Virus genome (UHGV): UHGV-0294963
DNA length: 64,000 bases
From: a virus
Strand: one strand, 5' to 3'
Each line of letters begins with the position of its first letter. The stretch's first letter is position 1. A program made the position numbers and the translations under genes. The notes under the pieces were generated by a model that made no database searches, had not been told where the DNA came from, and worked only from the letters and a program-made list of their open reading frames with translations. Shown here piece after piece: positions 16,125-63,569 of this stretch.

Positions 16125-16147
16125 GCGTGAACGAAATATGTTATAAT
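16125..16147 (+). promoter_or_regulatory. promoter AACTTCGT-N16-TGTTATAAT
   Basis: exact motif upstream of 16222 gene. Confidence 0.6.
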
Positions 16148-16560: not shown

Positions 16561-16562
16561 TT

Positions 16563-16945: not shown

Positions 16946-18030
16946 AAGTTATTCACCTGGCTGACCTTCATATAGGTAAGCCATTTCACAAGAAAAGTCT
17001 GCTATTCGACCAGACCTATATGCTGAAAAATGTCCTGGATTTGATGGAATCTCAGAAAGCACATCTGGTTATTGCAGGCGATGTGTTCGATTCTGCAAAT
17101 CCATCAATCGACGCTCAGGAAGTGTTCGTATCCTTTATCAAGGAGGTCGTGAAACTCTGTGATGCGTATAATCTGACTACGATTATTATCGTTGGTAATC
17201 ACGATTCTAATAGACGTCTTGCTTTGTGGGAAGACTTTGTCGGTACTCGAGTTCATATCGTGAACGATACTGTTGAAATACTAATCGAGGGTATTCCGTT
17301 CTATGCAGTTTCTTTTGTAAAACCCACAATCGCACAGACGAAATTCAATCGCCCATTTGAGTCCTATAATGAGGCTTTTGAAGCATATCTGCCTGAAACA
17401 AATCGTGAGAATACAATTCTCATTGCGCATCAGACATTCGAAGGTTGCACTACCGGTTCGTCTGAAGCGATGTCGTTCTTTGATGATGCAGTTAGCAAGA
17501 GAATCGTTCAGGAATTCCCATTGGTAATGGCAGGTCACATTCATAAGAAGCAGAAGATAGGAAATATTTTCTATCCTGGTAGTCTTATGCCTTATGCTTT
17601 CGGTGATGAGTATGCAGGCGGTATTACAGTATGGGACATTAGTACAGGTACGGACGGTAAGCTCACAGCCGGTTCTTCTGTCTATCCTGTACATCTATAT
17701 CGTGAATTCCAGATTGTAAGAGGAGACCTTAAGCATTGTCTAGGTATCGCAGATACAGGAGCCTATATCAAGGTTGAGCTTGTCGATGAGAATGTACCAC
17801 TCGATGTGGCTTTACCTCAACTTCAGAATCATTTCAAGAATATGGTAACGGCTGTTTCTAAGATAACGGACGATTGGGAAGCCGACTTGAATAAACCAAT
17901 GGTTCAATTCGATTCAATAGAATCCGCTCTGGATAGCTTCTGTAATCAGATTGAAGTTCCAGTCCTGGAGTCTGAACAATTACGATTAGTGCAGGAGGTA
18001 GTTCATGAGATTACTGAAACTTCAAATTAA
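16942..18030 (+). CDS. sbcD: SbcD/Mre11-like nuclease (calcineurin-like phosphoesterase)
   Basis: MKVIHLADLHIGK, AGDVFDS, GNHDS, GHIH motifs; TTG start after aaggaggagg RBS. Confidence 0.8.
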   Translation: MKVIHLADLHIGKPFHKKSLLFDQTYMLKNVLDLMESQKAHLVIAGDVFDSANPSIDAQEVFVSFIKEVVKLCDAYNLTTIIIVGNHDSNRRLALWEDFVGTRVHIVNDTVEILIEGIPFYAVSFVKPTIAQTKFNRPFESYNEAFEAYLPETNRENTILIAHQTFEGCTTGSSEAMSFFDDAVSKRIVQEFPLVMAGHIHKKQKIGNIFYPGSLMPYAFGDEYAGGITVWDISTGTDGKLTAGSSVYPVHLYREFQIVRGDLKHCLGIADTGAYIKVELVDENVPLDVALPQLQNHFKNMVTAVSKITDDWEADLNKPMVQFDSIESALDSFCNQIEVPVLESEQLRLVQEVVHEITETSN

Positions 18031-20738: not shown

Positions 20739-20807
20739 GATACTGCTTAAATGCACGGGACTGCTTGTAAAGTTATACACGCAACTTCGTAGCATTTAAG
20801 CAGTATC
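20739..20807. repeat. IR-bracketed intergenic cassette copy B (16-bp arms gatactgcttaaatgc / gcatttaagcagtatc)
   Basis: perfect arms 20739-20754 and 20792-20807; core cttgtaaagttatacacgc. Confidence 0.7.
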
Positions 20808-20816
20808 GTGTATAAT
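20783..20816 (+). promoter_or_regulatory. promoter AACTTCGT-N18-TGTATAAT overlapping the right arm of cassette B
   Basis: motif family; upstream of the DNA polymerase gene. Confidence 0.55.
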
Positions 20817-20846: not shown

Positions 20847-23150
20847 ATGCCAAGACGAAGAATTGGACTACCACAGCGAGATAATGCACCTGCCGCTCCT
20901 GTGGAAATTCCAAAATCATTACAAAAGAAATCCAAACCAGTTAAAGATATGGATTCTATCATCGCTCAAGCAAAAGCGATGTCCGAAAAATATGCAGGTC
21001 AATATGAATGCGTAACTGACAAGGATGTTCTTATCGACTATATCGACACCATCATCAAAGAAAGAAGAACAGGTCTTGATACCGAGACTACTGGACTGGA
21101 TATTTTCCATGATTCTGTAGTCGGTTTCTCACTCTATGCTCCGACAAAGAAAGCAATCTATGTACCGATGCTTCATCTGTCAAGATTCACAGGTAAGGTT
21201 GACCTTTCGCAGCTTTCAGTTGAATTCTGTAGTCAACAGTTAGCTCGTCTTAATGACGTTAAGGAGTTGACCATCGATTACTTTAACGCACCATTCGATA
21301 TGAATGTGATTTGGTATTCGATGGGTGTAAAGCTCTGGGATATCTGCTCGAACGATGCGTCGTTGATGATGCGTTTGCTGAACACCGAGCGTCACAGAAA
21401 CAACAACCTGAAGGACTTACACGCAGACTTCTGTTCACATACAACCAGAGGTCCTCGATTCAGTGAGTTGTTCCCTCCTGGAACATTCAATAGATGTCCT
21501 TATAAGTACACCAGCGCTTACGGTGCTCGAGATGCTGAGATGGCAAGTGAGCTTGTTGACTATGCTTACGGTGAACTAAGAAAGCCTGAGAATGCTGGTT
21601 TACTTAGAGTATGGGAAGATATTGAGCGCCCTCTCATCCCGGTACTTCTGCGTATGCGTGAGAAAGGTGTTCTTGTTGATGAGGCTAAGAGAGCTGAACT
21701 CATCGTCAAGTATCGCGAGAAGCTTGAGGAAGCAGAAAAAGATGTTATCCATGAGTATGAACCTTACATTCCCAAGATTAATCAGTGGAGAATGCGTTAC
21801 GGTAGAGCGAAGGGTAAGGTAATCGACATGCCAGTCAAAATAGGTTCTGAAGCTCAGCTGAAGATTCTTCTATTCGACATTATGGGATTGCCAAGACCTG
21901 AATCAGGTAAGGTTGATAAGAACGTTCTTAAAGACCTAGGAGTACCGATTGCTGGTGCAGTTCTGAGATACAGAGAAGCTAAGAAGCTACTGTCTACATA
22001 CCTTGAGGGTCTTGATAAGTTTATCCAGAAGGATGGTTGCGTTCACGGTGGTATTAAACAGCTTGGAGCTGATACAGGACGTACTTCAGCAGTAGACCCG
22101 AATATGCAGAACATCCCATCTCACAACAGAGAAATCAGAACGATGTACATTGCACGTCCCGGAAGGTATTTAATTTCATGTGACTATTCTGGTCAGGAAC
22201 CGCGTCTGACAGCTTCGTTGTCTAGGGACCCGAAAATGATTGAGACATATCAGAAGGGCCTTGACTTATATTCGATGATTGCTGCTGTTGCTTTCAACAC
22301 CACATATGAAGAGTGCCTTGAAAAGAGACCGAACGGTGAGCTGTACTTAGAAGGTAAGGAGCGTAGAGGACAAGCGAAGACGATAGTGTTGGGAATTTGT
22401 TATGGTCGACAAATTCCGTCTATCGCAGAGCAGCTGAAGTGTAGTGTAGACGAAGCTCAGCTTATCTACGATAAAGTTACCAAGAGTTTTCCGGGTCTTC
22501 TTCGAGCTCAAGATGAATCTGCTGAAATGGCTCATACCAAGGGTTATGTTGAAACACTCTGGGGCAGACGAAGACACTTGTCGGTTATGATGCACGACCC
22601 CTATGAATTCAGATATAAGGACGGGTGTAATCCGGATTTTGACCCGTTCGATTTAGATAACTGTAATGACACGAACGAGTTATCAGAAGCGACTAAGAAA
22701 AAGTATATCAAGGACCTGCTGGGGTTCAAGTACCGTCGTGACAAGAATGAGTATATCGAAGGGTTGAAAGCTCAAGGAATTGAGGTGTCTGACTATTCAT
22801 ATCAGATAAGTGAGCAGAGTAGAAAGTGCTTGAATGCCAGAATTCAAGGGTCGGCTGCTGATATGAGTAAGCTCGCAATGATTGCGATTGATAAAGATGA
22901 GCGGCTAAAGAAGCTCGACTGTTATCTACTTCTGATGATTCATGATGAGGTTATATGTGAATGCCCTATCGAAAACCACAAAGAAGCAATCACCTATATT
23001 AAAGAAGATATGGAAAAGGTAGCATCACATCTTCCGGTACCGTTTAAGTCAGACCCTGAAACAGCGGTGTGCTGGTATGGAGCTGAGGTTGATATAGATG
23101 AAGACGGTGAGCTTGAGGACGGAGGCGATGATGGTGAAGAGAGTGCATAA
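20847..23150 (+). CDS. family A DNA polymerase with 3'-5' exonuclease domain
   Basis: Exo I LDTETTGL; polymerase motifs RRGQAKTIVLGICYG and LLMIHDEVICE; aaggaggtaacc RBS. Confidence 0.85.
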   Translation: MPRRRIGLPQRDNAPAAPVEIPKSLQKKSKPVKDMDSIIAQAKAMSEKYAGQYECVTDKDVLIDYIDTIIKERRTGLDTETTGLDIFHDSVVGFSLYAPTKKAIYVPMLHLSRFTGKVDLSQLSVEFCSQQLARLNDVKELTIDYFNAPFDMNVIWYSMGVKLWDICSNDASLMMRLLNTERHRNNNLKDLHADFCSHTTRGPRFSELFPPGTFNRCPYKYTSAYGARDAEMASELVDYAYGELRKPENAGLLRVWEDIERPLIPVLLRMREKGVLVDEAKRAELIVKYREKLEEAEKDVIHEYEPYIPKINQWRMRYGRAKGKVIDMPVKIGSEAQLKILLFDIMGLPRPESGKVDKNVLKDLGVPIAGAVLRYREAKKLLSTYLEGLDKFIQKDGCVHGGIKQLGADTGRTSAVDPNMQNIPSHNREIRTMYIARPGRYLISCDYSGQEPRLTASLSRDPKMIETYQKGLDLYSMIAAVAFNTTYEECLEKRPNGELYLEGKERRGQAKTIVLGICYGRQIPSIAEQLKCSVDEAQLIYDKVTKSFPGLLRAQDESAEMAHTKGYVETLWGRRRHLSVMMHDPYEFRYKDGCNPDFDPFDLDNCNDTNELSEATKKKYIKDLLGFKYRRDKNEYIEGLKAQGIEVSDYSYQISEQSRKCLNARIQGSAADMSKLAMIAIDKDERLKKLDCYLLLMIHDEVICECPIENHKEAITYIKEDMEKVASHLPVPFKSDPETAVCWYGAEVDIDEDGELEDGGDDGEESA

Positions 23151-24847: not shown

Positions 24848-24893
24848 CTTATACATGATTTACTACCGTGTGGTATGCTTTAGCGTGCTACGT
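24848..24893 (+). promoter_or_regulatory. second copy of the conserved 40-nt block (gatttactaccgtgtggtatgctttagcgtgctacgtg)
   Basis: near-identical to 16065-16107; abuts the stop of the - strand gene 24897..27104. Confidence 0.4.
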
Positions 24894-27119: not shown

Positions 27120-27668
27120 TTAAGACATAGGTCCCAGGTAAATTGCACGAGAAACTTCAAGTGTGCAGTTGAACTTGACAATGTCCGAAGACTTGTAGTC
27201 AGCATCGCCGAAACCTAGCGATGAAATCCAGACGCCTCTCCACTTCCAGATACGAGAGAAGTTAGGGTCTCCATCACCAGAATCACGAAGAACATAAGCG
27301 TCCTTCATATAGCGGCTTGGTCTTCCCACCTTTTCTGTAGCAGCGTCGAATACCTGCTGGTCAAGGTCAACCAAAGCCTGCTGGCTGTCCAATCCAACGT
27401 ATCCCTTGATAGTCCAAGATACGTTCTGGTATGTAGGCTTACCTGCAAACTTCAAGCTGTCATTGCCGTAGAAGTCTTCGATTACGCCGTAACCTTTCTT
27501 GAACTCACCCAGGGAGTCTGTAGATAGCGTCAAGATATCCGAAAATGAAGCAAGCTCAGAAGAGTTGACATTGTATAGTCTAATCTCGAACTTGTCTTTC
27601 AGATATGGCATATAGTCGTCCTGACCAATCATGTGGTCAGTGCCATAATACATTCTGTCCATCCACAT
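27120..27668 (-). CDS. putative tail tube protein
   Basis: 182-aa gene immediately downstream of the sheath candidate (apart from the HU insertion); size and position only. Confidence 0.4.
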   Translation of the reverse strand: MWMDRMYYGTDHMIGQDDYMPYLKDKFEIRLYNVNSSELASFSDILTLSTDSLGEFKKGYGVIEDFYGNDSLKFAGKPTYQNVSWTIKGYVGLDSQQALVDLDQQVFDAATEKVGRPSRYMKDAYVLRDSGDGDPNFSRIWKWRGVWISSLGFGDADYKSSDIVKFNCTLEVSRAIYLGPMS

Positions 27669-27703: not shown

Positions 27704-27766
27704 CTGCTTAAATGCACGAAGGTACAGTGTATAAATTTACAGCCTAACCGACGCAGCATTTAAGCA
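27704..27766. repeat. IR-bracketed intergenic cassette copy C (arms tgcttaaatgc / gcatttaagca; core acagtgtataaatttacag)
   Basis: arms 27705-27715 and 27756-27766; right flank gcatttaagcaaaaccg identical to cassette F. Confidence 0.7.
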
Positions 27767-27778
27767 AAACCGCTGTGC

Positions 27779-28054
27779 TTACTTGTTCACACGCTCTTTG
27801 AGCTTGTAGCTTACCTTGAGCGCCGGTGCCTTGCTAGCATTGATGTCGATAGGCTGCTTTGTCTGAGGATTGATGCCCTTACGAGCTGCTCTCTCACGGA
27901 CTTCGAATGTACCGAAGGACTGAATGGTAACACTGTCACCCTGCTCAAGTGCTTCTGTGATTACATCGAACACACCGTCGATTGCTTTGTATGCCTGCTC
28001 ATTAGTGAAGCCTGCCTTTTCTTTGAGTTTGGAAACGAATTCCTGCTTATTCAT
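27779..28054 (-). CDS. HU/IHF-family histone-like DNA-binding protein
   Basis: FGTFEVRERAARKGINPQTKQPI..ASKAPA matches the HU beta-arm consensus ([22 protein letters not shown]), close to Bacillus HBsu; 91 aa. Confidence 0.85.
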   Translation of the reverse strand: MNKQEFVSKLKEKAGFTNEQAYKAIDGVFDVITEALEQGDSVTIQSFGTFEVRERAARKGINPQTKQPIDINASKAPALKVSYKLKERVNK

Positions 28055-35855: not shown

Positions 35856-35942
35856 CTGTAATCACCTCGCTTAAATAGACGTCAAATTGTTGTCTATTCA
35901 ATCTACATTATATGAACAATTGTCAGGATTGTCTGCTACTGA

Positions 35943-37529: not shown

Positions 37530-37697
37530 TGTCGTTTACCCCCTTACTGTAATAATGTAATACAACACCACATATCTGCTGTAGCTTGCTTATGTTTTGC
37601 GTGGTTTTGTTAACCATGTAATACAGTTATACACATTTACAGTCACACACGCATGCTGTAGCGTGCTATGTAGTTCGTATATCATATAATACACCGG

Positions 37698-43653: not shown

Positions 43654-43863
43654 CTAGTCTTGTGCTCTGAACGGATTAGCAAACTCAGAACCATTCAGCG
43701 AGATTGTATTATCAGGATTTAACCTGTCTGCTGCAAATGTCAAGCGTCTGTAGTCTTTGAGCAGTCGAGCAGTTTGCTCTAGGTCGTCTTTAGATACAAT
43801 AGCATAATCGTCTTGGTTCGCTTTCACCTCGAATGAGGAAATCAACTGATTAAGATTCTTCAT
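43654..43863 (-). CDS. hypothetical protein
   Basis: ORF. Confidence 0.35.
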   Translation of the reverse strand: MKNLNQLISSFEVKANQDDYAIVSKDDLEQTARLLKDYRRLTFAADRLNPDNTISLNGSEFANPFRAQD

Positions 43864-43956
43864 CGATTATCACTTCCTTTCGGTATATTCATATTATACA
43901 CGAAAGTGCCTAGAGACATCGAAGATATGCTATTTAATCTAATATACAGAAATAAA

Positions 43957-45156
43957 TCAATTATAGGTAATGCCGGTTAAGTTCGGGTACTTCGCGTGAA
44001 CCGCTTCATACTGAGCTTGACCACCTACCCAGATGGTGCAAGCGTTCGGCACACCTGTAAATATATCAGGTTGGTCGATTATCGGTGTGTCATTAACCAC
44101 CTTGGTGAAGTCGATTGATGATACATCGATGTAGTTAAGACTGGTGCAATTCTTGAATAAACCTTCCGCGGTATCTATCTTATCTAGACAGCAAGAGCCT
44201 AAATCAATTCGCTCTAGGACTGAATCATCTGCGAACATATAGCTGATATCAGTTGCGCTATGCGTATCAAGTAACGGTAGTCCTGTAATATCTTGTAGCA
44301 AGCTGTTAGCAGCTAACGCATAACTAAAGGTTGTCACGTTACCCGTATAAACGTGTTCAAGATTTAACCTCGTAGCACGCTGTTGATAAAACAGGTGTGA
44401 CGCGGTGGTAAAATCAGTAGCATCAGTTACCGTCCAAATCTCACAATCTTTATACCAGGTATCAGCAGGAACTGCTCGAACTGAACCGATATCTGCATAG
44501 TAGGTTGTCTGTGGGGTAACAGCACTGGCTGAGGAATATCCTGCAATACGATATGGTTGAGGAAAATCAGAGTTATAAGCTGACTCTAATTTCTTCAACC
44601 TAGCCAGTACACCACCAGGTACTACCCCTGCTTGGTATTCTTGTGCTATCGGAATTAAGCCCGTCATAGTTATCCTAGCATTGGTAACCGGATTAACAGC
44701 AGTCATCTGTGTGACTACCTCGTCGTAATTAGCTTGATATCCGATACCTATGCCATAATACCGATTAAGTGGAATAGCTAAATCTATCTTATTTAGAATT
44801 CTGTAACGAATTCTAAAGGTAGACGAAGGTCGAGTAGCAGTATACAGATATAACTTCCCGTTTACCGTTTCGACAGCGGTGATACTCTCGAATGCTTGAT
44901 ATTGAGCTTGACGCTCAGCTTGTGTAGCATTATATGAGTAAATCAGTTGAATTACTGGAACTGTATCTTCCTTGATATTATAGTAGGGCGTTTCCCATCT
45001 ATATTGCGTACCATAGATATACCAATCTGAATTTACGACATTGGCATATATAGGGTCTCCTGTCTGATGATATGAAGGGTAAACGTTGATAAAATCATCT
45101 ACATCAGTGAATACCAACTCTACTGTAGGTGATACCTGACTAACCTTAAATAGCAT
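43957..45156 (-). CDS. BspA-like leucine-rich-repeat / DUF285-like repeat protein
   Basis: C-terminal repeats LDTHSATDISYMFADDSVLERIDLGS / FKNCTSLNYIDVSSIDFTKV resemble DUF285 WDvSnVTdMSYMF and BspA LRR units (Firmicutes/Mollicutes-typical). Confidence 0.35.
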   Translation of the reverse strand: MLFKVSQVSPTVELVFTDVDDFINVYPSYHQTGDPIYANVVNSDWYIYGTQYRWETPYYNIKEDTVPVIQLIYSYNATQAERQAQYQAFESITAVETVNGKLYLYTATRPSSTFRIRYRILNKIDLAIPLNRYYGIGIGYQANYDEVVTQMTAVNPVTNARITMTGLIPIAQEYQAGVVPGGVLARLKKLESAYNSDFPQPYRIAGYSSASAVTPQTTYYADIGSVRAVPADTWYKDCEIWTVTDATDFTTASHLFYQQRATRLNLEHVYTGNVTTFSYALAANSLLQDITGLPLLDTHSATDISYMFADDSVLERIDLGSCCLDKIDTAEGLFKNCTSLNYIDVSSIDFTKVVNDTPIIDQPDIFTGVPNACTIWVGGQAQYEAVHAKYPNLTGITYN

Positions 45157-45188: not shown

Positions 45189-45246
45189 GCGTAAATGCAG
45201 GGTAGTGCGGTGTACATTATATTATATTAAACCACTGCATTTAAGT
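45189..45246. repeat. IR-bracketed intergenic cassette copy E (gcgtaaatgcag / ctgcatttaagt)
   Basis: arms with 1 mismatch; core ggtgtacattatattatattaaacc; lies upstream of the 43957..45156 start. Confidence 0.6.
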
Positions 45247-47116: not shown

Positions 47117-49471
47117 TTATTGTTCCGGGAATCTGAATTTGATATCCTTGTCGATTGCCGCTTTGCATTCATCAATTGTCTTGTAGATGTGTGGTGAGAA
47201 CTTACCATAAGGACTTACTGCAATATACCCTCCTGACTTCTCACCGCCGGTGATGAGATAATCCTTGTATCTCATAGCACCATCGTCGACGATACTATCA
47301 TCCAGGTCTACCTCAGAACTGTTCAGAGAATCATTATCAACTACAACAGCGAAGCCGTCTTCGAGAGGCTTTATACCAGAAAGCTGGATGCCGAACTCTG
47401 CAGCAATTGGCTCGATTTCGGTTGGCTCCATTCCACGAATGATAATCTTATAGCCTGAGCCTTCACCTTCCGTAGTAGGCACGGTGCTTACCTGCTTTGC
47501 TCCTTCTTTGATTTTCTCGACGAACAATTTTAATGCAGGATTGTCGTGTACCGAGCTATTCAGTTCAGACTTTCTAGAAGAATCCATCTTGACTTCGTCG
47601 TTCATGTCGCAGACGGTAGTCCAGATGCAACCAGGATACTCGACTTCAAATTGTTCTTGAATTGCTTCGTATAAATCCATGCCCTCAAGATTGTCACTGA
47701 CTGTAATTACTGCCGGCTTCTCAATTTCATTGCCGTTCTCGTCCTCGTAGTACACCTGAAATTGTTTCTTAGGCTTGTTCACGTCAGCAGTACTCGGTTC
47801 GATTGAGCTATCTACACTCTGCTTTGTTGGAGTAACGTCACCTTCATGAGCGTCGAAAGAATCCCAGCCGTTCTGTACCAGTGTGGTCACGACGTGCTCT
47901 ATGATATCATCTGCTTCTGATGCTTGCTCGTCAGAGCCGTCAAAGCCAATGCGAATCGTAGTCGAATCTGGTCGAGCAACCTGCTGAATAGTGATATCCA
48001 GATTTTTATCTCTCAATTCGTTCTCGATAATATTCTTAAGGTCGGACACTCTTTCCTGAGTGCGAGCGAAGTCCTGGGGAACCGTTACCTCACTGATAGC
48101 ACAATTAAGAGAGCTGTCGATATCATCGAAATCCTCGGAGTCGAGAGGGTCATCATCTCCGAGGATAACGCGCATAATTTCGTCAACAATTAGCAAGTCT
48201 TCAGCGGCCTGTATAATGTCTACAAGAGCTTCATGCTCATCGACGCTTGCCAATAGCTCCTTTAGTGAACCTTCTACGTCGCCGAACATCTTTTCCTTGA
48301 TTTGGTCATCGTAGTTAAGGTCTTCGATAGCCTCTACAATACCAACCAACATTTCATGTTCATCGACCTCTGCCGCAGCTTCCTTCAGCGAATTGGCGGA
48401 TTCACAGTTCAGTTCATTCTTTTTTTTAGATGAGTCGAGGCTTTCATCACCTTCGCATACGCAGGGTTCCTGGCCGCACTCGGGGCAGACAGCATCAGTC
48501 GGAAGAGCTGCTTGAGCAGCATCAGCAATTACGACAAAACCTTCAGGAATTTCGTCGTCCTCTGTTTCCTTGACGAAGAGTGCGAGCTCATTGGTATCAG
48601 GATTCTGAACAATCTTGATATCGTCGAGTGCAACCTCATTGCCAGACTCAGTGGTAATCATTGCAACTTCCTCAGAACCTTCACCGACAACATCTCCGCC
48701 ATCAGTGTTTCCTTCAGGTTCTTCTGAAGAGTTCAGCGTAGTACTTCCTGTGGTCTTGTTAGTCCCTTTAGCAGAGTCGAGCTCCTCGGTTGCAGATTCC
48801 CAGTCGACAGATTTGGTTACATCTGATGATTCTACTGCCTGGCGTGCCTTCTCTGCGTCTGCATCCGGGCAGTCGATTTTTACCTTAACGTCGGTATTGT
48901 TAACCTTCTCGAAGTCAACCTTAGCACCAGGAACAGCTTTCTCGATTCTGCTTCTGAGCAGACGCTCTGTAGTATCATTATCAAGGTCGGCAAAATCATT
49001 ATAGATAGTCACTGTGCCTAAAACCTTGGTGGAACCAACTTCGCAGTTAAGACTAGAATCAGCATTTGTCTTGTCGCAGGAGCCATTCATGTCATCCTTT
49101 GTGTACCACTTACCGTCTGTACGATACCAGAGCTGTTCTTTACCGTCCTTGACAGCCCAGAAATCACCGTCCAAACCTGCCTCTTCAGGAGATGCAAGAC
49201 GAACAACCTGAGCGCCAGTCTCATTCTCGAAAGCTTCGAGATATTTCTTTGCTTCTTCTTCGCTAAGCCAATGACAGAGCTCCTGAAGTACAGATTCTCT
49301 TGAGCAGTTGAGCTTACGAATAGTTGCTAGACTTACGCTTGCGATAGCAGAAGTTCTACTCCTCGAACTATTTAGCTCTGTGTTGCGAGGGCGACGCTGC
49401 TTTGTCGTAGACTGAGTCTGAGTCTGAGTCTGAGCATTTGTCTTTGCAACCGGTTTAGTTACATTTACCAT
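47117..49471 (-). CDS. large acidic protein with internal duplications and 8 LN[SC]x motifs: candidate processed internal head/scaffold-like protein
   Basis: 784 aa; duplicated segment EAAAEVDEHEMLVGIVEAIEDL / ELLASVDEHEALVDIIQAAEDL; TELNSS, KLNCS, SSLNCE, TTLNSS, NELNCE, SSLNCA, SELNSS, DSLNSS; aaaggag RBS. Confidence 0.5.
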   Translation of the reverse strand: MVNVTKPVAKTNAQTQTQTQSTTKQRRPRNTELNSSRSRTSAIASVSLATIRKLNCSRESVLQELCHWLSEEEAKKYLEAFENETGAQVVRLASPEEAGLDGDFWAVKDGKEQLWYRTDGKWYTKDDMNGSCDKTNADSSLNCEVGSTKVLGTVTIYNDFADLDNDTTERLLRSRIEKAVPGAKVDFEKVNNTDVKVKIDCPDADAEKARQAVESSDVTKSVDWESATEELDSAKGTNKTTGSTTLNSSEEPEGNTDGGDVVGEGSEEVAMITTESGNEVALDDIKIVQNPDTNELALFVKETEDDEIPEGFVVIADAAQAALPTDAVCPECGQEPCVCEGDESLDSSKKKNELNCESANSLKEAAAEVDEHEMLVGIVEAIEDLNYDDQIKEKMFGDVEGSLKELLASVDEHEALVDIIQAAEDLLIVDEIMRVILGDDDPLDSEDFDDIDSSLNCAISEVTVPQDFARTQERVSDLKNIIENELRDKNLDITIQQVARPDSTTIRIGFDGSDEQASEADDIIEHVVTTLVQNGWDSFDAHEGDVTPTKQSVDSSIEPSTADVNKPKKQFQVYYEDENGNEIEKPAVITVSDNLEGMDLYEAIQEQFEVEYPGCIWTTVCDMNDEVKMDSSRKSELNSSVHDNPALKLFVEKIKEGAKQVSTVPTTEGEGSGYKIIIRGMEPTEIEPIAAEFGIQLSGIKPLEDGFAVVVDNDSLNSSEVDLDDSIVDDGAMRYKDYLITGGEKSGGYIAVSPYGKFSPHIYKTIDECKAAIDKDIKFRFPEQ

Positions 49472-49573
49472 AGTGATTACTCCTTTCGGTTATTGAAGTA
49501 ATAGTCTATCTCGAGATATACTATTTCCAGAAGCATTTCGATGCTTCTGTATGTTCTATTATACATAGGACTA

Positions 49574-50032
49574 TCAGGTTGTCTGTTTATATCCCGGATT
49601 CCATCCTTTCTGGATGTAAGTAGCGAACTGACACTCTGGTATGTGCTTGATTACTCCGTCTTTATTAACAACACGTCTATTCCTTCGAGCTTCTGCAAGT
49701 TTCGCATAGCTTCTCGGTGAATCTCGTTTGAATCGATTGAAACCGAAACGAATATTTGTAGTCTGATATTCTCTAATATATTGAGCTTCTAAATCACAAG
49801 CTAACTGAGCTGCGTTGGTCTGAGACTTAGGTACTGTAGCTAATATTTCGTACCTGAAGGAATCCCAACCAAATCTATTGATGGCTTTCCAGAAGCAGCT
49901 ACAGTGCTTATACCCAGCACCTCCGTTTCCTGCACGCTCAGCTTGCTGTGAACCGGTTTTACCGATATAACGCCTACCGTCTGGTGCGATATACGCATAA
50001 ATCGTATAGCAGTCACCCTTAAGATATGCCAT
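49574..50032 (-). CDS. GIY-YIG homing endonuclease (free-standing)
   Basis: N-terminal TIYAYIAPDGRRYIGKTG (GIY..YIG) plus basic C-terminal DNA-binding-like region; own promoter and RBS. Confidence 0.7.
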   Translation of the reverse strand: MAYLKGDCYTIYAYIAPDGRRYIGKTGSQQAERAGNGGAGYKHCSCFWKAINRFGWDSFRYEILATVPKSQTNAAQLACDLEAQYIREYQTTNIRFGFNRFKRDSPRSYAKLAEARRNRRVVNKDGVIKHIPECQFATYIQKGWNPGYKQTT

Positions 50033-50065: not shown

Positions 50066-50098
50066 ATTATAACATATTTCTGTTAACTCTACGAAGTT
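50066..50098 (-). promoter_or_regulatory. promoter AACTTCGT-N16-TGTTATAAT (- strand)
   Basis: reverse complement of acgaagtt (50091-98) and attataaca (50066-74). Confidence 0.6.
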
Positions 50099-50107: not shown

Positions 50108-50179
50108 ACGGTTTTGCTTAAATGCTGTGACACTGCGTTATACTTTACACATACGCATATCGTGCATTTAAGCAAAACC
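50108..50179. repeat. IR-bracketed intergenic cassette copy F (17-bp perfect arms cggttttgcttaaatgc / gcatttaagcaaaaccg)
   Basis: arms 50108-50124 and 50163-50179; core tgtgacactgcgttatactttacacatacgcatatcgt. Confidence 0.75.
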
Positions 50180-51204: not shown

Positions 51205-51271
51205 TCTAGACTCTTTTCTAAGGAAATAGAAGCGTGCTTGAACACGCTTCTATCTATTATAAATACCGGTA

Positions 51272-52996
51272 TCAAAGTGTTCTATCAGCAAAGACTTCAC
51301 CAACACCCTTGATTACTTCTTGAATAAATGGGACCCGAATTTGGTCGTATACTGTAGCACCCTTAGCATTGCCGATAAGATGCTGAATCTGTGATTTAGG
51401 TAGTGCCATAAAACCAGCAAGGGCATTCTGGAACGATTGACCTGCATAATGAGAACGGAGGTATGCCTCGATTTCACCAGCACCAGCTTTCGCAAGACCG
51501 TTAATACCCAGACCAACCAGAATCTGTGCTAACGTCATCGACTTCTTAGACGCATCAACTCTTTGCATATAGGTATTCATCTTCGCCCTGCCACTACCTG
51601 GAATTGTGAGTATGTCGATAGGCTTGATTTTATAGAAGTCAGCCGGAGTCTGAAGTTTACCTTTATCAAAGAGTGCAGTTACCAAGCTGCTTGCGACACC
51701 CTTGAAATTACCGACTTTCTTGTCAGTCCAACCGTTCAGACGAGCCAGCAGCTTCTCCTTGCACTTAACATTCGCACAAACACCTAGTGCTGAAATACCG
51801 GTAAGTACCGAACCACAAGCCGGGCAAACCGTAGGCTTAGGAATTGGAATAGACTCGGGTGTGTGCCTTGCAGATTTAATTGCAGGAATAATATCACCTG
51901 CTTTATACACAACAACCATATCGTTAATTTGAACATCGAGTTCCTGGATTCGTCCCCAGTTATGCAGCGTAGCTTTGGTAATGGTACTACCCATGACATT
52001 AACCGGCTCCAGAATAGCTACAGGATTGAGCTTACCGGTTGCGCCTACCTGCCACTCAACACCTTTAAGGAGAGTCTCCTTTTCTTGTGCAGGAAATTTA
52101 TAAGCAATAGCCCATCTCGGTACTACACCATTATCTCCAAGCTGTTCTCTAAGTTCGAGATTATCAACCTTGAGAACCATACCATCAATCGGAATATCCT
52201 CAGCTTCACGCTTTGCCTGAACCTCGGAGATAATGGCTGCTACATTTTCACCGGTGCTCACTTCCCAATGAGCTACGGGACTAAAGCCCCACAATGCTAA
52301 TGCCTGCAAGCACTTGCTATGAGTATCGAGGGTGCCTACAGCCGAAGGAATGTCGTTGATAGTCTTCGGATTTTCAAGATTGAACACTCTGCAAGAGAGG
52401 TAAGCAGCTCTTTCAGGTTCGCTGTCTCTCTTGAATATACCCACAGCGGTATTTCGAGGATTTGCTTGTTTTCCGTATCTCTTGCAGTAGTCTGCAAAGC
52501 GAGACTTTAGCATAAACACCTCACCGCGGACGATTATTTCATCTTTACAGTCGATTGTCTTAGGAATATCGGCAATATACTGAGCAGCGGAGATACGCTC
52601 TACACCCTTTTTACCGTCACCTCGGGTTGATGCCGAAACGAGCTCACCATTTCTGTAGATAAGCTGAACAGACAAACCGTCGAGTTTATATTCTTGGAAT
52701 ACCTTTGACACGTTCTTGTGCTTATTCAGGAACTCTTTAGCATCGTCGACCGTGAATACATCGAGAAGACTGAGCATCGCGACGGGATGTATGACATCGC
52801 CATCACCCATATCGGGATTTACCGACTGCGTCGGGCTGTTCTCTGCAGCTCGATGATACTTCTCATAATCGTAGATGTCTGCCATATAGCTGTCATACAG
52901 TTCATCAGAAATACCAGTTAAAGCTCCTTGAATGTAGAGCAGTCGTGCATTGTTCACGACTTTGATAAGTTCATGATATCTTTCTTCTGTTATCAT
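51272..52996 (-). CDS. ligA: NAD-dependent DNA ligase (LigA-type, short form)
   Basis: adenylation motif EYKLDGLSV; OB-fold; Zn finger CPACGS..C..C; HhH region; ctaggaggtta RBS. Confidence 0.85.
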   Translation of the reverse strand: MITEERYHELIKVVNNARLLYIQGALTGISDELYDSYMADIYDYEKYHRAAENSPTQSVNPDMGDGDVIHPVAMLSLLDVFTVDDAKEFLNKHKNVSKVFQEYKLDGLSVQLIYRNGELVSASTRGDGKKGVERISAAQYIADIPKTIDCKDEIIVRGEVFMLKSRFADYCKRYGKQANPRNTAVGIFKRDSEPERAAYLSCRVFNLENPKTINDIPSAVGTLDTHSKCLQALALWGFSPVAHWEVSTGENVAAIISEVQAKREAEDIPIDGMVLKVDNLELREQLGDNGVVPRWAIAYKFPAQEKETLLKGVEWQVGATGKLNPVAILEPVNVMGSTITKATLHNWGRIQELDVQINDMVVVYKAGDIIPAIKSARHTPESIPIPKPTVCPACGSVLTGISALGVCANVKCKEKLLARLNGWTDKKVGNFKGVASSLVTALFDKGKLQTPADFYKIKPIDILTIPGSGRAKMNTYMQRVDASKKSMTLAQILVGLGINGLAKAGAGEIEAYLRSHYAGQSFQNALAGFMALPKSQIQHLIGNAKGATVYDQIRVPFIQEVIKGVGEVFADRTL

Positions 52997-53398: not shown

Positions 53399-53432
53399 AT
53401 TATAACACATAGGAGGTGTGGCATACGAAGTT
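53399..53432 (-). promoter_or_regulatory. promoter AACTTCGT-N17-TGTTATAAT (- strand)
   Basis: reverse complement of acgaagtt (53425-32) and attataaca (53399-407). Confidence 0.6.
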
Positions 53433-53435: not shown

Positions 53436-54197
53436 TTACAGAAATTGCTTATAGATAGGGTCTAAGCTATTATTGATAAAATCGCATTGATGGCACTTAA
53501 AGTCGATAATTTTTCGAATTATTTCTACTTCAGAATCATAGATAGATGCTACTTTAGGACAGTGGTCAGACTCACCTAAGCTGATACCGCCATCAATTCG
53601 GATAGCAGGTGTGCAATAGAAGTGAGACACAAAAAGATGTTCAACAATCAAACCAATTGACGGGTTCTTCAACTGCTTGGTAACCGCTCGCACATTAAGA
53701 CACTTAGACGCTTTCGCTTTCCATGGTAGCTTATTAGCGAGAGCTCTGCCTTGTGGGTATATCTGAGTAACACATCGGTCGCATAGAATAAATCCTGACT
53801 CACGCCAAAGTCTCTTGTGTAAGGGTAAGGCTTTCGGGTAGTATCTAGAGTCTGTAGATACCTGCCAAAATACTTTCGTGCACGGTGTTCCCGCTGCAAT
53901 TCTTTTAGCAGCATCGGGATGTTCTAGGCACCAGAATCCGTTCGTCGTAATCGTAATCACAGATTGGTGTCTCTCTTCAGAAAACCTGGTTAGTATTCTG
54001 TTCATAATCAATTCAAAATCAGGGTGTTCGGTAGGCTCACCACCTGACACGACGACATGCTCATAAGCTTCGTTTCTGATTAGAAACTCTAGAACATCGT
54101 TGAGCGTGTCTAAAGTCATATGTTCTCCTTCAGGTGTTGCACTGTTCATACAATGAGTACAACCCATCGAACATTTTTCAGTCAATTTCAGCAGCAT
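53436..54197 (-). CDS. radical SAM protein, glycyl-radical-enzyme activase-like (NrdG/PflA family)
   Basis: CSMGCTHCMN (CxxxCxxCxN), SGGEP and TNGF blocks as in PflA/NrdG. Confidence 0.5.
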   Translation of the reverse strand: MLLKLTEKCSMGCTHCMNSATPEGEHMTLDTLNDVLEFLIRNEAYEHVVVSGGEPTEHPDFELIMNRILTRFSEERHQSVITITTNGFWCLEHPDAAKRIAAGTPCTKVFWQVSTDSRYYPKALPLHKRLWRESGFILCDRCVTQIYPQGRALANKLPWKAKASKCLNVRAVTKQLKNPSIGLIVEHLFVSHFYCTPAIRIDGGISLGESDHCPKVASIYDSEVEIIRKIIDFKCHQCDFINNSLDPIYKQFL

Positions 54198-54672
54198 CTG
54201 GAGCTCCTTTCGGCTTTACACAAGGCTGCCATCCAAGAACATCGACAAGGTCGACATAATAGGAATCGCAGTCGAAATCCTGGTCTTCAGTTCGGTACCA
54301 ACCGACGTGGTATTCACCACTGTTATCGTAGAAGAATACGGTCTGTTCATTATCAGGTGTCTTTACAGCAGGGTCAATCCACGCATCAACCAAACCTTTC
54401 GCATAACCAGCGGTCCAACCAGCTTTGAATGGGTAGTCTTCTCGACAAGATTTAACTGGTAGATTTTCGTACCTATTCTTCAGGCGAGAAACCTGTCGCT
54501 TAAGGTTAGCAATTTCTTTCTTGCAGTTCTTCACCTTAGCTGTTTCTTTAAGAAGTATCGGCTGTAATGCTTCAGTCATCGCATCGCATCCTGCATTTCG
54601 AGCAAGCTGTCTCTGCTCATCGATATAAGATTGAATCCGTTGTTCAGGAACTTCTTTATTGTCTATCCACAT
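54178..54672 (-). CDS. hypothetical protein
   Basis: start reset to the ATG with ggaggtga RBS. Confidence 0.45.
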   Translation of the reverse strand: MWIDNKEVPEQRIQSYIDEQRQLARNAGCDAMTEALQPILLKETAKVKNCKKEIANLKRQVSRLKNRYENLPVKSCREDYPFKAGWTAGYAKGLVDAWIDPAVKTPDNEQTVFFYDNSGEYHVGWYRTEDQDFDCDSYYVDLVDVLGWQPCVKPKGAPDAAEID

Positions 54673-54677: not shown

Positions 54678-55061
54678 TCACCTCCGTGCAGGATGATTAT
54701 CTCGCGCTACAAATCTGATATCAAGCTGTTCACCAGTCTTGGTGTTAACCAGACCGTTAAAATTCTTACTAACATCGACATGGCAATTCTTAAGGATATA
54801 CCTGATTATTTCAGCACCAGACATATAATGCTGTTTGTAGACAGTACCACCAAGTGAGAGCTGATATACGCCGAACCTGTCGATACCCAGAACAAGCTGA
54901 ATAAATGTAATCTCTTCAAGAACTGTGCGGTTAGCACGAGTTTCGTATCCTGACTTACCAATCGCCCGATAGTACCAAGATGTATCACCTTCAAGCGAGC
55001 CTCTGGTTGCTGACAGGTATAGATAATTAAGAGCCGCTTGAATTTGAGTTGATGGTTGCAT
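54678..55061 (-). CDS. hypothetical protein
   Basis: aaggaggaagc RBS; downstream of the promoter at 55094-55126. Confidence 0.45.
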   Translation of the reverse strand: MQPSTQIQAALNYLYLSATRGSLEGDTSWYYRAIGKSGYETRANRTVLEEITFIQLVLGIDRFGVYQLSLGGTVYKQHYMSGAEIIRYILKNCHVDVSKNFNGLVNTKTGEQLDIRFVARDNHPARR

Positions 55062-55093
55062 TGTTTGCTTCCTCCTTTATTTATTGTATCTAT

Positions 55094-55126
55094 ATTATAA
55101 CACATTCCTGCGTGTGTTACGAAGTT
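55094..55126 (-). promoter_or_regulatory. promoter AACTTCGT-N16-TGTTATAAT (- strand)
   Basis: exact motif. Confidence 0.6.
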
Positions 55127-55910: not shown

Positions 55911-56111
55911 TTATCCTAATAAGTCCCAGAACTCTTTAGAAGTAATCTGGTATATCTTAGTCGAGTCATAGGCATCGGTGATGACTACCTCTCCATTCTG
56001 CTCATACATGGAAATGAGCAATCCAGTACTGTCTTTCGGGTTACCACCGACTTTGCTGTCCTGGATGCGGTTTTCTTCTTTTAGCTCACGTCGTATAGGT
56101 AAATCCTTCAT
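55911..56111 (-). CDS. hypothetical protein
   Basis: aaggaggggg RBS. Confidence 0.4.
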   Translation of the reverse strand: MKDLPIRRELKEENRIQDSKVGGNPKDSTGLLISMYEQNGEVVITDAYDSTKIYQITSKEFWDLLG

Positions 56112-56973
56112 GATAAACCCCCTCCTTGATGGGCAAGACTACAATGTCGTGATTGCAAGCAGAAGCATGGTTGTTCGCCATATCAATAAATACAGATATT
56201 TCGCTAAATTCAACCGAACTGTTACTTATCAGCTTTAAGCCTACAGTATCTCCCCAAACGAACAAAGTACCCGCCGGTAAAGTCGAAAAGGTCTGCTTGG
56301 TACGTTCTTTGTCAGAAATAACCTTAACCTTGATATTAGAAGAAACCGTTCTGAGCTTATAGTAATCCATATCTACAATATTAGATTCATACGCTGCAGG
56401 GTGCTTTACCCAATCACCGTCTACCCGGTTGTCTTTTATCTTAATGCCTATCAGATTATACCAGCGGAATACAGCACCTACCGGTAATTCTGAGAACGAA
56501 ATATCACCCTCCCAGTCTTCCTTCAGCTTCTCGATTTCAGATTGACTCAACGGCTTCACCCACAAGTCGGTTCGAGAGGTAATTCGATGTCCGTTGTCTA
56601 AACGAATAATATTTCCTTGATGCTTGGGCGACTTATCAGTGATAATCTCATTCGTGAGTTTTCTGAACAGCTTACCACCGAAGTTAAAGATAGTGCCTAC
56701 AGGGACTTTCTCGAGAGGAAGCATACCACGCATCGCCTGATATCTCTTCTTATCGATTTTGCAGCCAGGGTATGCTTTTTCGATAGCAGCTACAATTTCG
56801 GTATTTATCTGTTCGGTGTTGGTGCAACCAGAAGCAGAATACCAGTCGTCGCCTAGGAAGTAATGACATAGTTCATCAAGAGCAACCTGAGCTTTCATTG
56901 GTGGTGCAAATATACCATAATCACCAGGTTCGCATAAACTCAAAATACGGTCTCTGTCAAATTTCTTGTGCAT
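56086..56973 (-). CDS. hypothetical protein
   Basis: aaggagg RBS. Confidence 0.45.
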   Translation of the reverse strand: MHKKFDRDRILSLCEPGDYGIFAPPMKAQVALDELCHYFLGDDWYSASGCTNTEQINTEIVAAIEKAYPGCKIDKKRYQAMRGMLPLEKVPVGTIFNFGGKLFRKLTNEIITDKSPKHQGNIIRLDNGHRITSRTDLWVKPLSQSEIEKLKEDWEGDISFSELPVGAVFRWYNLIGIKIKDNRVDGDWVKHPAAYESNIVDMDYYKLRTVSSNIKVKVISDKERTKQTFSTLPAGTLFVWGDTVGLKLISNSSVEFSEISVFIDMANNHASACNHDIVVLPIKEGVYHEGFTYTT

Positions 56974-56983: not shown

Positions 56984-57421
56984 TTAGAACATCATCGGTT
57001 TACTCTTACCTGCTATCTCCTGCAGCTCTGAGTAAGAAATTCTGAACCCTAGCTGCTCCTCTTTGCAGTGCTCAATGAGCTCTTCATAAGTCATTTCGCC
57101 ACTTGCAACCTTCAACGCAAGTCTGAGTTTTTCGATAGCAGCTTCGCCAGCACCCTCACCGTTATCGCGGTCATACAGACGAGTGTCGATTACATCAGGA
57201 GCGATGTCGATTTTCATTACCTTACCGTTCAGGTAATCGAAATAGATTTCCTCCTCGCCGTTCCTGCCTGTATGACGAGCTTGCTTGATGAGCTCACCTG
57301 CTCTCCGAATATTCAACTTACCAGTATAGCCCAGAAAACTCATACCCTGCATTCTAGAATCGTTCCAGAGGGCTACAAGTACCTGAGCCTTATCCAAACC
57401 CCTGATATCCACCTTTGCCAT
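56984..57421 (-). CDS. hypothetical protein
   Basis: start reset to the ATG with aaggagg RBS (promoter lies inside the longest ORF). Confidence 0.45.
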   Translation of the reverse strand: MAKVDIRGLDKAQVLVALWNDSRMQGMSFLGYTGKLNIRRAGELIKQARHTGRNGEEEIYFDYLNGKVMKIDIAPDVIDTRLYDRDNGEGAGEAAIEKLRLALKVASGEMTYEELIEHCKEEQLGFRISYSELQEIAGKSKPMMF

Positions 57422-57454: not shown

Positions 57455-57487
57455 ATTATAACACAGAATAACCGTGATTGCGAAGTT
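57455..57487 (-). promoter_or_regulatory. promoter AACTTCGc-N16-TGTTATAAT (- strand)
   Basis: motif family. Confidence 0.55.
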
Positions 57488-59458: not shown

Positions 59459-59791
59459 TTACACATTATCATCTTCCTCTGCATACCGAAACATCGGTTC
59501 GAATCCGCATTCATGCGCATCCGGCTTAGGGTCGAGTGATACCAGGAATCTGGCATATTCGGTAGGCCCAGGGTGGTAGTAGACAGAATAGCCTTTGGCA
59601 AAGAGTTTCTTTAAGGACTGCTCGATTCCTGAATACTCTTCATTCACGTTAATCATAAATTCGCCAACCACATCAAGCGTCTTGACACGGTTAAATAGCT
59701 TCTTTTGACCTTCCTTGTCTATGTGCAGCTTCTGAGTTGAACGTTTAGTCTTTTCTCGTCTGCGTCTAAGTATTTTTGCAGAAAATAGCAT
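59459..59791 (-). CDS. hypothetical protein
   Basis: aggaggag RBS; promoter upstream. Confidence 0.45.
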   Translation of the reverse strand: MLFSAKILRRRREKTKRSTQKLHIDKEGQKKLFNRVKTLDVVGEFMINVNEEYSGIEQSLKKLFAKGYSVYYHPGPTEYARFLVSLDPKPDAHECGFEPMFRYAEEDDNV

Positions 59792-59877: not shown

Positions 59878-59910
59878 ATTATAACATATTACAATGCGCA
59901 GTACGAAGTT
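59878..59910 (-). promoter_or_regulatory. promoter AACTTCGT-N16-TGTTATAAT (- strand)
   Basis: exact motif. Confidence 0.6.
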
Positions 59911-62688: not shown

Positions 62689-62913
62689 TTACTCGACCTC
62701 TTTCGTATCGAACACATCTGGTATGATTACGATAGCATCATCAGGCAATCCGCGTTGTCTTAGAACACTATGCCACCCATCCGGGTCACTTTCATACTGT
62801 CTACGAGTCAGATATAGATATTCCTCTTCTGGCTGACCTGAATCATGGAACAGACGCTCAGCTGCCTGTTCGATTGCTTTCTTGAGCTTTTCCTTGTAAT
62901 ATTTGCTAGACAC
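62689..62913 (-). CDS. hypothetical protein
   Basis: GTG start after aaggag; promoter directly upstream. Confidence 0.4.
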   Translation of the reverse strand: MSSKYYKEKLKKAIEQAAERLFHDSGQPEEEYLYLTRRQYESDPDGWHSVLRQRGLPDDAIVIIPDVFDTKEVE

Positions 62914-62939: not shown

Positions 62940-62972
62940 ATTATAACATATTGCGGTGTGGGTAACGAAGTT
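62940..62972 (-). promoter_or_regulatory. promoter AACTTCGT-N16-TGTTATAAT (- strand)
   Basis: exact motif. Confidence 0.6.
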
Positions 62973-62999
62973 GCGAAGCACCGCATAAGCACTCTAAAA

Positions 63000-63560
63000 T
63001 TCCAGAATTGTCAACCGCAAGCTAGGAGTCGGGACTTCTGATATAGAAACTTTTTGCGAGAAATCGTGCTAGCAGAAAACGGTATCTAGGATTCTGGGGG
63101 TGTGGATTACCTGACACGAGAAGCTGGGCTTTCGAAATCAAGGGAGTCAAGAACCAGGGCTGGGAGACCGAGGAGTAGGGTTCGTAACCGGGAGCTGGGA
63201 GGTAGGGGTAGGGGGTAAAGGGTAGGGGATAGGGGGTTTGGATATGGAGACTTTTTGCGAAATCAGTGTCGGAGAAAAAACGTAAAAAGCGGGTCCGTAG
63301 TATCGGAATACCGTTGAAAGGTATTTCAGGACCGGTATTTTCGGGCGATTATTTTAAGGTATCTACAGCAGAACTTCGGTATTTTCCTGGTTTTGTGTTA
63401 TATAACACATCTAGCAGAACGACTCGAAGCTCCTTGCTACCAGCCTGAACCTAGCACGCTAACGCACGCTAAGGGCTTGCTGCTAGACATATGTTATACA
63501 TCGTAGCTATGTTACCCTTAGCGTGCGTTGTGCTGCTATGTGCTGCTTTAGCGCTCACGA
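63000..63560. repeat. 560-bp non-coding region: GCTGGG iterons, (TAGGGG)n G-tract array, ~40-bp direct repeats, long imperfect palindrome
   Basis: no ORF of 60 aa or more on the - strand; G-runs at 63190-63240 in an otherwise AT-rich genome; direct repeats gaaactttttgcgagaaatc (63043) and gagactttttgcgaaatc (63247). Confidence 0.6.
63373..63440. promoter_or_regulatory. divergent promoter pair sharing the palindromic -10 TGTTATATAACA (AACTTCGg on +, AgCTTCGa on -)
   Basis: both strands give 8-mer-N16/17-TGTTATATAA; the - transcript would cross the G-tract region, the + transcript the long palindrome. Confidence 0.4.
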
Positions 63561-63569
63561 GCTCGTTGC

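Follow-up and report, generated by a model that had tools for sequence, protein, structure and literature searches.

The 64,000-nt stretch of viral DNA analysed here (UHGV virus genome UHGV-0294963, hereafter the window) contains, at 55094-55126 on the minus strand, one member of a promoter family that combines an extended -10 element with an asymmetric upstream heptamer, AACTTCG. This motif is real and under selection. The explanation that we favour, and in which as a whole we place roughly even confidence, is that these are the early and DNA-metabolism promoters of an uncultured myovirus of ~150.6 kb, at which the sigma-A RNA polymerase of the host would bind the extended -10 TRTGnTATAAT while an auxiliary factor would read AACTTCG, the heptamer at about -39 to -33 replacing the -35 hexamer.

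An earlier note on this DNA, made from its letters, had described a family of at least 14 phage promoters on both strands. The existence of such a family is borne out by the counts. The composite AACTTCG-N17/18-TGTTATAAT occurs nine times in the window against 0.00 expected from 100 shuffles, and the exact 8-mer AACTTCGT eight times against 2.05 ± 1.34, a number that none of 100 shuffles reached. All nine TGTTATAAT sequences in the window have the heptamer 17 or 18 nt upstream, and all nine are intergenic, point in the same direction as the next gene and lie 35-95 nt from its start; the start codons downstream of the family sites are preceded by strong Shine-Dalgarno sequences. A weight-matrix scan was run with a matrix trained on related viral contigs alone, the window excluded, at a cut-off of 12.4, which is the top score of 30 null sequences. 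Eleven window sites exceeded it, at 1557, 3069, 14985, 16115 and 20783 on the plus strand and at 50098, 53432, 55126, 57487, 59910 and 62972 on the minus strand. The copy at 43893-43926(-) and the palindromic pair at 63372-63431 are degenerate yet recognisable members; the former, overlooked in the note, falls under the threshold because the matrix fixes TGTTATAAT. The copies that the note listed come to 13 rather than 14, and two of its positions shift, 16125 to 16115 and the copy given at 63412 to 63397-63431. A candidate at 27723(-) was rejected: its "box", which falls in the variable loop of a hairpin cassette, is not retained by relatives. Inside the head and tail block (24.9-43 kb) there is no strong family copy. 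The copies in the window are as follows:

55094-55126, minus strand: the flagged copy, with AACTTCGT at 55126-55119, a 16-nt spacer and TGTTATAAT at 55102-55094; matrix score 58.4
55080-55093, minus strand: start-site and initial-transcribed block ATAGATACAATAAA of the flagged copy, with a predicted start at ~55087
1557-1590, plus strand: family promoter AACTTCGA-N17-TGTTATAAT before the 5'-3' exonuclease gene 1656-2534, with an orthologue in loci L033 and L035
3069-3102, plus strand: variant copy AAGTTCGT ... TGTTATATAAT before the block 3142-14139; matrix score 20.9
14985-15017, plus strand: family promoter before the DUF932 gene 15084-15980; matrix score 60.2
16115-16147, plus strand: family promoter before small genes and SbcD/SbcC, 16234-20728, with an AGCGTGCTA motif upstream at 16096-16104
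20783-20816, plus strand: variant copy AACTTCGT-N17-GTGTATAAT before the DNA polymerase gene 20847-23150; matrix score 20.3
43893-43926, minus strand: variant copy ATCTTCGA-N17-GTGTATAAT before 43654-43863
50066-50098, minus strand: family promoter before 49574-50032 and the gene 47117-49471 for a 784-aa protein; the spacers of its orthologues toggle between 16 and 17 nt
53399-53432, minus strand: family promoter with a 17-nt spacer before two small genes and the NAD-dependent DNA ligase gene 51272-52996
57455-57487, minus strand: family promoter AACTTCGC before 56984-57421 and the Tad8-like gene 56086-56973
59878-59910, minus strand: family promoter before 59459-59791 and six more small genes
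62940-62972, minus strand: family promoter before 62689-62913 and about nine small genes
63372-63431, both strands: palindromic double-box site AACTTCGG-N16-TGTGTTATATAACACA-N16-rc(AGCTTCGA), rc being the reverse complement, with a shared -10 core at 63394-63409

In the flagged copy, TGTTATAAT is followed by ATAGATACAATAAATAAAGGAGG and then by the ATG at 55061, and the genes downstream are 54678-55061, 54178-54672 and 53436-54197. The block 3142-14139 behind the variant copy at 3069 is of unassigned function and includes a cell-wall hydrolase; relatives carry AAGTTCGA-N17-TGTTATAAT at a site assumed to correspond. At 63372-63431, two opposed family-like promoters share one -10 core, with inverted AACTTCG-like boxes 16 or 17 nt from the palindrome TGTGTTATATAACACA, and a second double-box site of the same design lies ~4.2 kb past the window end (near L177:4939). 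The transcription units that follow the copies in the window comprise 3-10 genes; the claim that nearly every unit of one to three genes has its own copy holds just outside the window, where 13 copies fall within ~9 kb.

We fetched related loci, in which 229 of 277 distinct TGTTATAAT sites are accompanied by the 8-mer with at most one mismatch and 227 of these 229 have a spacer of 16 nt (171 sites, 75%) or 17 nt (56 sites, 25%). A sequence logo built from these 171 and 56 copies resolves the motif into three blocks, namely the box, an uninformative spacer leading into T-R-TGTTATAAT, and a start-site and initial-transcribed region. Information is ~2 bits per position in the box and ~0 bits in the spacer; the spacers of paralogous copies are not as alike as the blocks on either side of them. 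Before the TG, T has 1.3 bits and R 0.7 bits, giving TRTG; the TG itself is fixed by the search pattern and is still seen in 14 of 18 copies from a search with a relaxed pattern. The third block, ATAGATACAATAAA(ACA), holds 0.7-1.5 bits per position across the 227 copies. Upstream of the box no position exceeds 0.3 bits, and the only conserved feature there is AGCGTGCTA, present at a subset of copies. The absence of information there, together with a box that is not A/T-rich (three G/C in seven), upholds the view that the element is not an UP element, which would be an A/T-rich tract at -40 to -60. The 8-mer is not invariant, as had been claimed: its eighth position varies (T > G > A = C), and the invariant core is AACTTCG, of which TTC(G) is the hardest part, with deviations in the window at 3069 (AAGTTCG), 43926 (ATCTTCG) and 63431 (AGCTTCG). 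The hexamer TATAAT is perfect in all nine core window copies; the description of the -10 as perfect or near-perfect throughout needs qualification in that a perfect TGnTATAAT is absent from four copies, those at 3069 and 20783 and the pair 63372/63431. Across 82 kb of the genome, 27 of 34 heptamers have a -10 at the correct distance, and the seven orphans are neither enriched nor depleted relative to the ~9.6 heptamers in total expected by chance.

The capsid protein and other proteins of the window are encoded on a 150,573-bp scaffold, of which ENA metagenomes yielded two assemblies that differ in start point (ZELL14-1_SAMEA2467055 scaffold_36 and ERZ1689763 NODE_3); we take the sample label to denote a human faecal cohort. 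We read 103 kb of this 150.6-kb source genome (82 kb and 20.6 kb), and statements about the genome refer to that portion. It belongs to a myovirus whose capsid and portal fold are of the T4 type and whose genes include those for PolA, an NAD-dependent ligase, SbcCD, a clamp loader and an HU-like protein as well as anti-Thoeris genes. Among isolated phages it is closest to myoviruses of Firmicutes, at only 25-30% protein identity, and a megablast search with 8 kb found no isolate that matched. The capsid protein most similar to its own is that of Bacillus phage vB_BceM-HSE3, but no such promoter array was found in the first 50 kb of that phage, whose annotated "sigma" proteins matched nothing in the clade. 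No tRNA genes were found, and Rfam returned no match in the window or in the early region past it. The host is probably an anaerobic Firmicute of the human gut, because the ribosome-binding sites are strong (AAGGAGG) and relatives carry genes for a clostridial-type QueE and for NrdD/NrdG.

Past the right end of the window, 8.5 kb of the source genome add 13 copies, nearly one per small gene, in a region (~9 kb) of small genes without known domains; to the left of the window 9.4 kb add three more, and the separate 20.6-kb segment adds seven. In IMG/VR, the exact pattern occurs in 95 stretches concentrated in ~10 contigs of 111-167 kb, which are 66-88% identical to the window at the nucleotide level and hold ~20-38 copies per genome in the parts read. 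The genes that follow family copies encode the ligase, the 5'-3' exonuclease, SbcCD, the DNA polymerase, the clamp loader and anti-defence proteins. Early-gene content varies strongly between relatives while the promoters stay alike, and at orthologous promoters (those of the DUF932 gene, of 49574-50032 and of the exonuclease) the box and the -10 are kept as spacer sequence drifts and spacer length alternates, 16 nt in some orthologues and 17 nt in others. This pattern is what selection on two blocks contacted by protein leaves behind, and not recent duplication. A scan for the composite across 596 Gb of bacterial and archaeal genomes gave 79 scattered single matches at a level resembling chance, none of them phage-related; there was no sign of any genome using the composite as its own promoter type, and no host was identified. 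Unrelated viral contigs likewise contain only single matches. Since matches outside the clade are single in both sets, the composite is a clade-specific signature. A ligase-profile search for more distant relatives, which might have shown whether the box co-varies with lineage, returned the same clade only. Searching the literature for AACTTCG or TGTTATAAT with phage, promoter and sigma terms retrieved only primers and unrelated uses. The clade-wide spread, the initial-transcribed block and a phage sigma gene behind a family promoter, described below, were all absent from the earlier note.

The logo agrees with the note that the extended -10 of the family is of the sigma-A type. At all 10 positions, -16 region included, the -10 half is identical to the Gram-positive sigma-A consensus TRTGnTATAAT; this consensus was reportedly described by Voskuil and Chambliss in 1998. 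Promoters of the Gram-positive -16 class, which the downstream half of our motif thus matches at every position, are unlike the family in having no conserved element at -39 to -33. Matches to a canonical -35/-10 pair occur in the early region at chance level (38 against 33.8 ± 6.6). A single canonical promoter, TTGACT-N17-TATAAT, exists in the 103 kb, at L177:587-740, on the window's minus strand and ~7.9 kb past the right window end; it is conserved in two relatives (L039 and L061) and drives a ~120-nt C-rich (CCCCCAACC) non-coding unit that has its own intrinsic terminator and no Rfam match. A second, similar C-rich unit lies ~300 nt downstream of it. This promoter shows where a true -35 stands relative to the same TGTTATAAT, and the family box lies upstream of that position by 2-3 bp. 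The end of the 8-mer lies 19-20 bp from TATAAT, as against 17 bp in the canonical promoter, which agrees with the description of an element slightly upstream of the canonical -35 register; for the flagged copy, the placement of the 8-mer at -39 to -32 is correct, given a start 7 nt past the -10. The heptamer is 20-21 bp upstream of TATAAT, centred at about -36, and the 17-bp register of the family copies reads TCGTaa or CGTaat, with no TTGACA-like hexamer.

Late intergenic regions contain conserved TATAAT(G/A)TAGA-like -10 elements that lack the box; relatives retain the one before the gene for a 200-aa protein beside the capsid gene. Such elements may constitute a second class of promoter, with the same -10 and start region but neither box nor TRTG:

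35902-35912, minus strand: box-less TATAAT(G/A)TAGA-like element
49555-49563, minus strand: box-less TATAAT(G/A)TAGA-like element
51253-51261, minus strand: box-less TATAAT(G/A)TAGA-like element

The source genome also encodes P0002, a sigma-70-family protein of ~198 aa that is conserved in the clade (Sigma70_r2, 4e-13 to 4e-14; phrog_351, 2e-30) and whose nearest homologues in isolated phages, at 26-33% identity, are in Geobacillus virus E2 and SPO1-like Bacillus phages. Its gene is the second of an operon that, in the source genome and eight related contigs alike, immediately follows a family promoter:

L199:9103-10597, equal to scaffold_36 130540-132034: operon of a PemK-helix-turn-helix (HTH) gene followed by the sigma gene P0002, with relatives in L004, L016, L018, L031, L060 and L070

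The product of the first gene is PemK/MazF-like (PemK_toxin, 1.7e-15) and has an HTH at its C terminus. In the source genome and eight relatives, AGCGTGCTA stands just upstream of the box of this operon, at a short distance as at 16096. Copies with a weakened -10, such as TGTTACAAT, TGTTATACT and CGTATAAT before the sigma operon, retain perfect boxes. Because no other promoter class that could start the early genes was found in the 103 kb and the sigma operon itself sits behind a family promoter, the family would have to fire before any phage sigma exists and is most likely read by the host polymerase. The phage sigma, transcribed from a family promoter, would then come later in the cascade, presumably serving a later promoter class.

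We propose that the host sigma-A polymerase would engage the extended -10 and start transcription ~7 nt downstream, at a predicted position inside the conserved A-rich block ATAGATACAATAAA. The box would be a positive element whose effect depends on its orientation and distance and which is read by one DNA-binding domain tethered to polymerase, because the site is an asymmetric 7 bp, its distance is rigid to within ±1, it is invariant, and it is perfect where the -10 is weak. Its reader would most plausibly be an auxiliary factor that touches RNA polymerase, either by a MotA-like appropriation of sigma or as a host class-II activator; sigma region 4 in its normal register is an unlikely reader. 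The suggestion in the earlier note that a specific factor recognises the element fits the invariance, the asymmetry and the fixed 16/17-nt distance across ~10 diverged genomes, and it is from these features that we infer such a factor. The note had offered a variant of host sigma-A region 4 among the candidates; this is unlikely, as the source genome and two relatives keep a conserved canonical TTGACT-N17-TATAAT promoter.

Several points weigh against this proposal. The box-binding factor, in both existence and nature, is deduced from the DNA, a monomeric auxiliary factor being our best guess, and reading by sigma-A presupposes a specificity that we assume for the host's sigma. Neither MotA, AsiA nor any other known activator domain (Pfam/PHROG) was found in the 103 kb, where the search covered the window and the precomputed domains of L177, L178 and L199 and remote homologues would escape it, and the same 103 kb yielded no candidate box-binding protein. 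An activator made by the phage would need to be expressed from the same promoter class, which would call either for the extended -10 to be active at a basal level by itself or for a protein packaged in the virion. The block behind the variant copy at 3069 is possibly structural, and the term "early" may therefore not fit every copy.

Three other ways of reading the box, directly by region 4, as a shut-off operator or by the phage sigma, are possible, and we rank all of them below an auxiliary factor. That host sigma-A region 4 might accept the box as a deviant -35, with no extra factor and with the odd sequence tuning strength or escape, seems doubtful to us. It would be the simplest way to fire ~35-40 promoters at infection without another promoter class, a tolerance of ±1 in spacing is sigma-like, and T4 early promoters, too, extend their consensus past the host elements with phage-specific sequence (PMC2988021). 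With a spacer of 18/19 bp, TTCGTA has T, T and A in common with TTGACA, but this is a match at three of six positions with a spacer 1-2 bp too long, and the invariant AAC at -39 to -37 lies beyond the usual reach of region 4. Moreover, a true TTGACT at 17 bp serves one conserved promoter in the genome yet was not chosen for the family, and an extended -10 needs no -35, which leaves a near-invariant poor -35 unexplained. It is less probable again that the box is a negative site through which a middle or late phage protein, or a host repressor, shuts off an early class whose basal activity comes from the extended -10. Initiation requires no more than the extended -10, and activation by the box is thus dispensable; conservation extends to the start region, which might be bound together with the box; and the phage encodes an HU/TF1-like protein (27779-28054) and the conserved PemK-HTH protein, TF1 of SPO1 being a selective inhibitor of early transcription. 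Repressor sites are usually dyads, however, and here a single asymmetric heptamer is held at a fixed helical distance, while the perfect boxes at weakened -10s look as if a positive element compensates. Few copies, moreover, have inverted repeats around the -10. The 8-bp inverted repeat that the earlier note pointed out at 14985 exists, formed by spacer and start region (14995-15002 and 15020-15027), but it is not a property of the family: repeats of at least 7 bp surround the -10 in 3.5% of 229 copies against 1.0% of shuffles, and we rejected them as a general operator.

We consider it quite improbable that P0002 itself reads the family, with its region 4 on AACTTCG and its region 2 on TATAAT in a positive autoregulatory loop. 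The source genome has the gene and the clade conserves it, autoregulation is common in sigma operons, and by our reading P0002 keeps the TIRIP..E segment, which contacts the extended -10 in sigma-70. Its region 2.4 (FATYAVPCIQGAMQRF), which we take to be of the sigF/G/B type, nevertheless lacks the WW and Q/T residues of sigma-A, while the -10 of the family is the sigma-A consensus, and the ~27 bp from the centre of the box to the centre of the -10 exceeds the span of known sigma factors. There is in addition a bootstrap problem, since the only other promoter in the 103 kb drives a small RNA and the sigma would have to be carried in the virion. The nearest relatives of P0002 in isolated phages include annotated sigma genes of SPO1-like Bacillus phages, and the SPO1 sigmas gp28 and gp34 recognise promoters quite unlike these and come into play after an early class that the host polymerase reads. 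Least credible, and in our judgement very remote, is that the shared sequence is kept mainly by recombination of promoter cassettes of the PeSL kind and that the heptamer has no separate function. The difference in early-gene content between relatives with like promoters, and the conserved hairpin cassettes that several copies adjoin, would suit such exchange, but homogenisation should keep the spacer, which has ~0 bits and changes length between orthologues, and conservation falls in discrete blocks as protein contacts predict. In the promoter-early stem-loop (PeSL) cassettes of T4-type phages, for which such recombination has been proposed, an early promoter is joined to a stem-loop and recurs where variable small genes meet; here, hairpin cassettes adjoin just 2-3 copies (20783, 50098).

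A promoter class that combines a host -10 with a phage-specific substitute for the -35 is of a known kind, and its AACTTCG variant is undescribed. The nearest analogy to an auxiliary factor at the box is the middle-promoter system of T4, in which the monomer MotA binds a box, (a/t)(a/t)(a/t)TGCTTtA, centred at -30 and 12 ± 1 bp from a stringent -10, and AsiA removes sigma region 4 from the -35 (PMC2988021). Both systems have a stringent host-type -10, often with TGn, a short asymmetric phage box that replaces the -35 at a distance fixed to within ±1, and dozens of copies before prereplicative and DNA-metabolism genes. Unlike a MotA box, the family box is AACTTCG, lies 20-21 bp upstream and is centred at about -36; no homologue of MotA or AsiA was found in the 103 kb, the host is Firmicute-like rather than Escherichia coli, and the phage, with its one canonical promoter in 103 kb, lacks a canonical early class from which activators could be expressed. 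The early promoters of T4 have a good -35, UP elements, and TGn with extra phage-specific consensus (PMC2988021). They resemble the family as many near-identical strong promoters that use host polymerase at once and have a consensus beyond the host elements, whereas the AACTTCG family has neither a good -35 nor an UP element. Unlike extracytoplasmic function (ECF)-type promoters, in which a -35 with AAC stands 16-17 bp before a CGT-type -10, the family has AAC and CGT adjacent within the box and, as its -10, TATAAT with TRTG. Phage SPO1 has early promoters with a canonical TTGACT-type -35, a host-takeover module and a sigma cascade of gp28 followed by gp33/34. The gut phage family is like it in the density of promoters before small early genes (13 copies in ~9 kb), in an HU/TF1-like gene and in the transcription of a phage sigma gene from the early promoter class, and unlike it in the replacement of the -35 by AACTTCG.

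Relatives of the source phage (L048, L006, L051, L029 and others) encode a complete set of 7-deazaguanine DNA-modification genes, with a DpdA-like transglycosylase (phrog_887, 2e-40), FolE, QueD, the clostridial-type QueE, QueC and QueF. Each of these deazaguanine genes occurs in 4-9 contigs, and QueA in three; none was located in the source genome. Going by this gene content, the DNA of these phages is probably guanine-modified, which could bear on promoter recognition; more speculatively, a canonical -35 may be unusable because of modified guanines in the major groove.

The window holds further elements next to the promoters. Hairpin cassettes of the form GCTTAAATGC-N37-40-GCATTTAAGC have arms that are conserved in relatives and a loop that varies freely, and some abut or overlap family promoters; they may be RNA processing sites or another structural signal. 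The right arm of one lies in the spacer of the copy at 20783, as the earlier note had it, and another is directly upstream of the promoter at 50066-50098:

1118-1175: hairpin cassette
20745-20801: hairpin cassette
27706-27765: hairpin cassette
50116-50173: hairpin cassette
45190-45245: variant hairpin cassette
near 37753: single cassette arm

The motif AGCGTGCTA(C), which at 16096 stands 10 nt upstream of the box at 16115, may be an extra operator:

16096-16104, plus strand: AGCGTGCTA(C) motif
24882-24890, plus strand: AGCGTGCTA(C) motif
37660-37668, plus strand: AGCGTGCTA(C) motif
44373-44381, minus strand: AGCGTGCTA(C) motif
63452-63460, minus strand: AGCGTGCTA(C) motif

Around the palindromic double-box site, a non-coding stretch of 656 nt (62973-63569) contains C-rich repeats (CCCCTA, CCTCC), especially at 63162-63250(-), that resemble an anti-Shine-Dalgarno sequence and would be transcribed leftward from the minus-strand half of the double promoter. 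The plus-strand half would run antisense to the gene of a 144-aa early protein (63570-64003(-), extending 3 nt past the window end). This protein is acidic and apparently all-helical, is conserved in six related loci amid a hypervariable early region and matched no sequence in Pfam, PHROG or PDB; it is conceivable as the box-binding factor. The HU-family gene (27779-28054(-)), which recalls TF1 of SPO1, lies between the tail sheath gene and 27120-27668. Anti-defence genes stand after family promoters both in the window (56086-56973(-)) and in L199 (5717-6181, 17508-18263 and 11489-11926), the set comprising Tad8, Tad2-like and Tad3 proteins and a NADAR-domain protein.

It is possible, though we advance it tentatively, that the family reflects a new form of polymerase redirection in Firmicutes, in which a host factor or a conserved phage factor, the latter made early or packaged in the virion, would bind AACTTCG at -39 to -33 and replace the contact between region 4 and the -35, as an analogue of T4 sigma appropriation with an unrelated box and geometry and no MotA or AsiA homologue. 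Were a dedicated AACTTCG factor to exist, it would be a second, independent solution to the problem that T4 solves with MotA and AsiA, and one operating in gut Firmicute phages, whose transcription programmes are essentially unstudied. The family would also supply compact, strong promoter parts for Gram-positive anaerobes, and its motif marks the early genes of a whole clade of ~150-kb gut phages, including takeover and anti-defence genes (Tad8, Tad2-like and Tad3).

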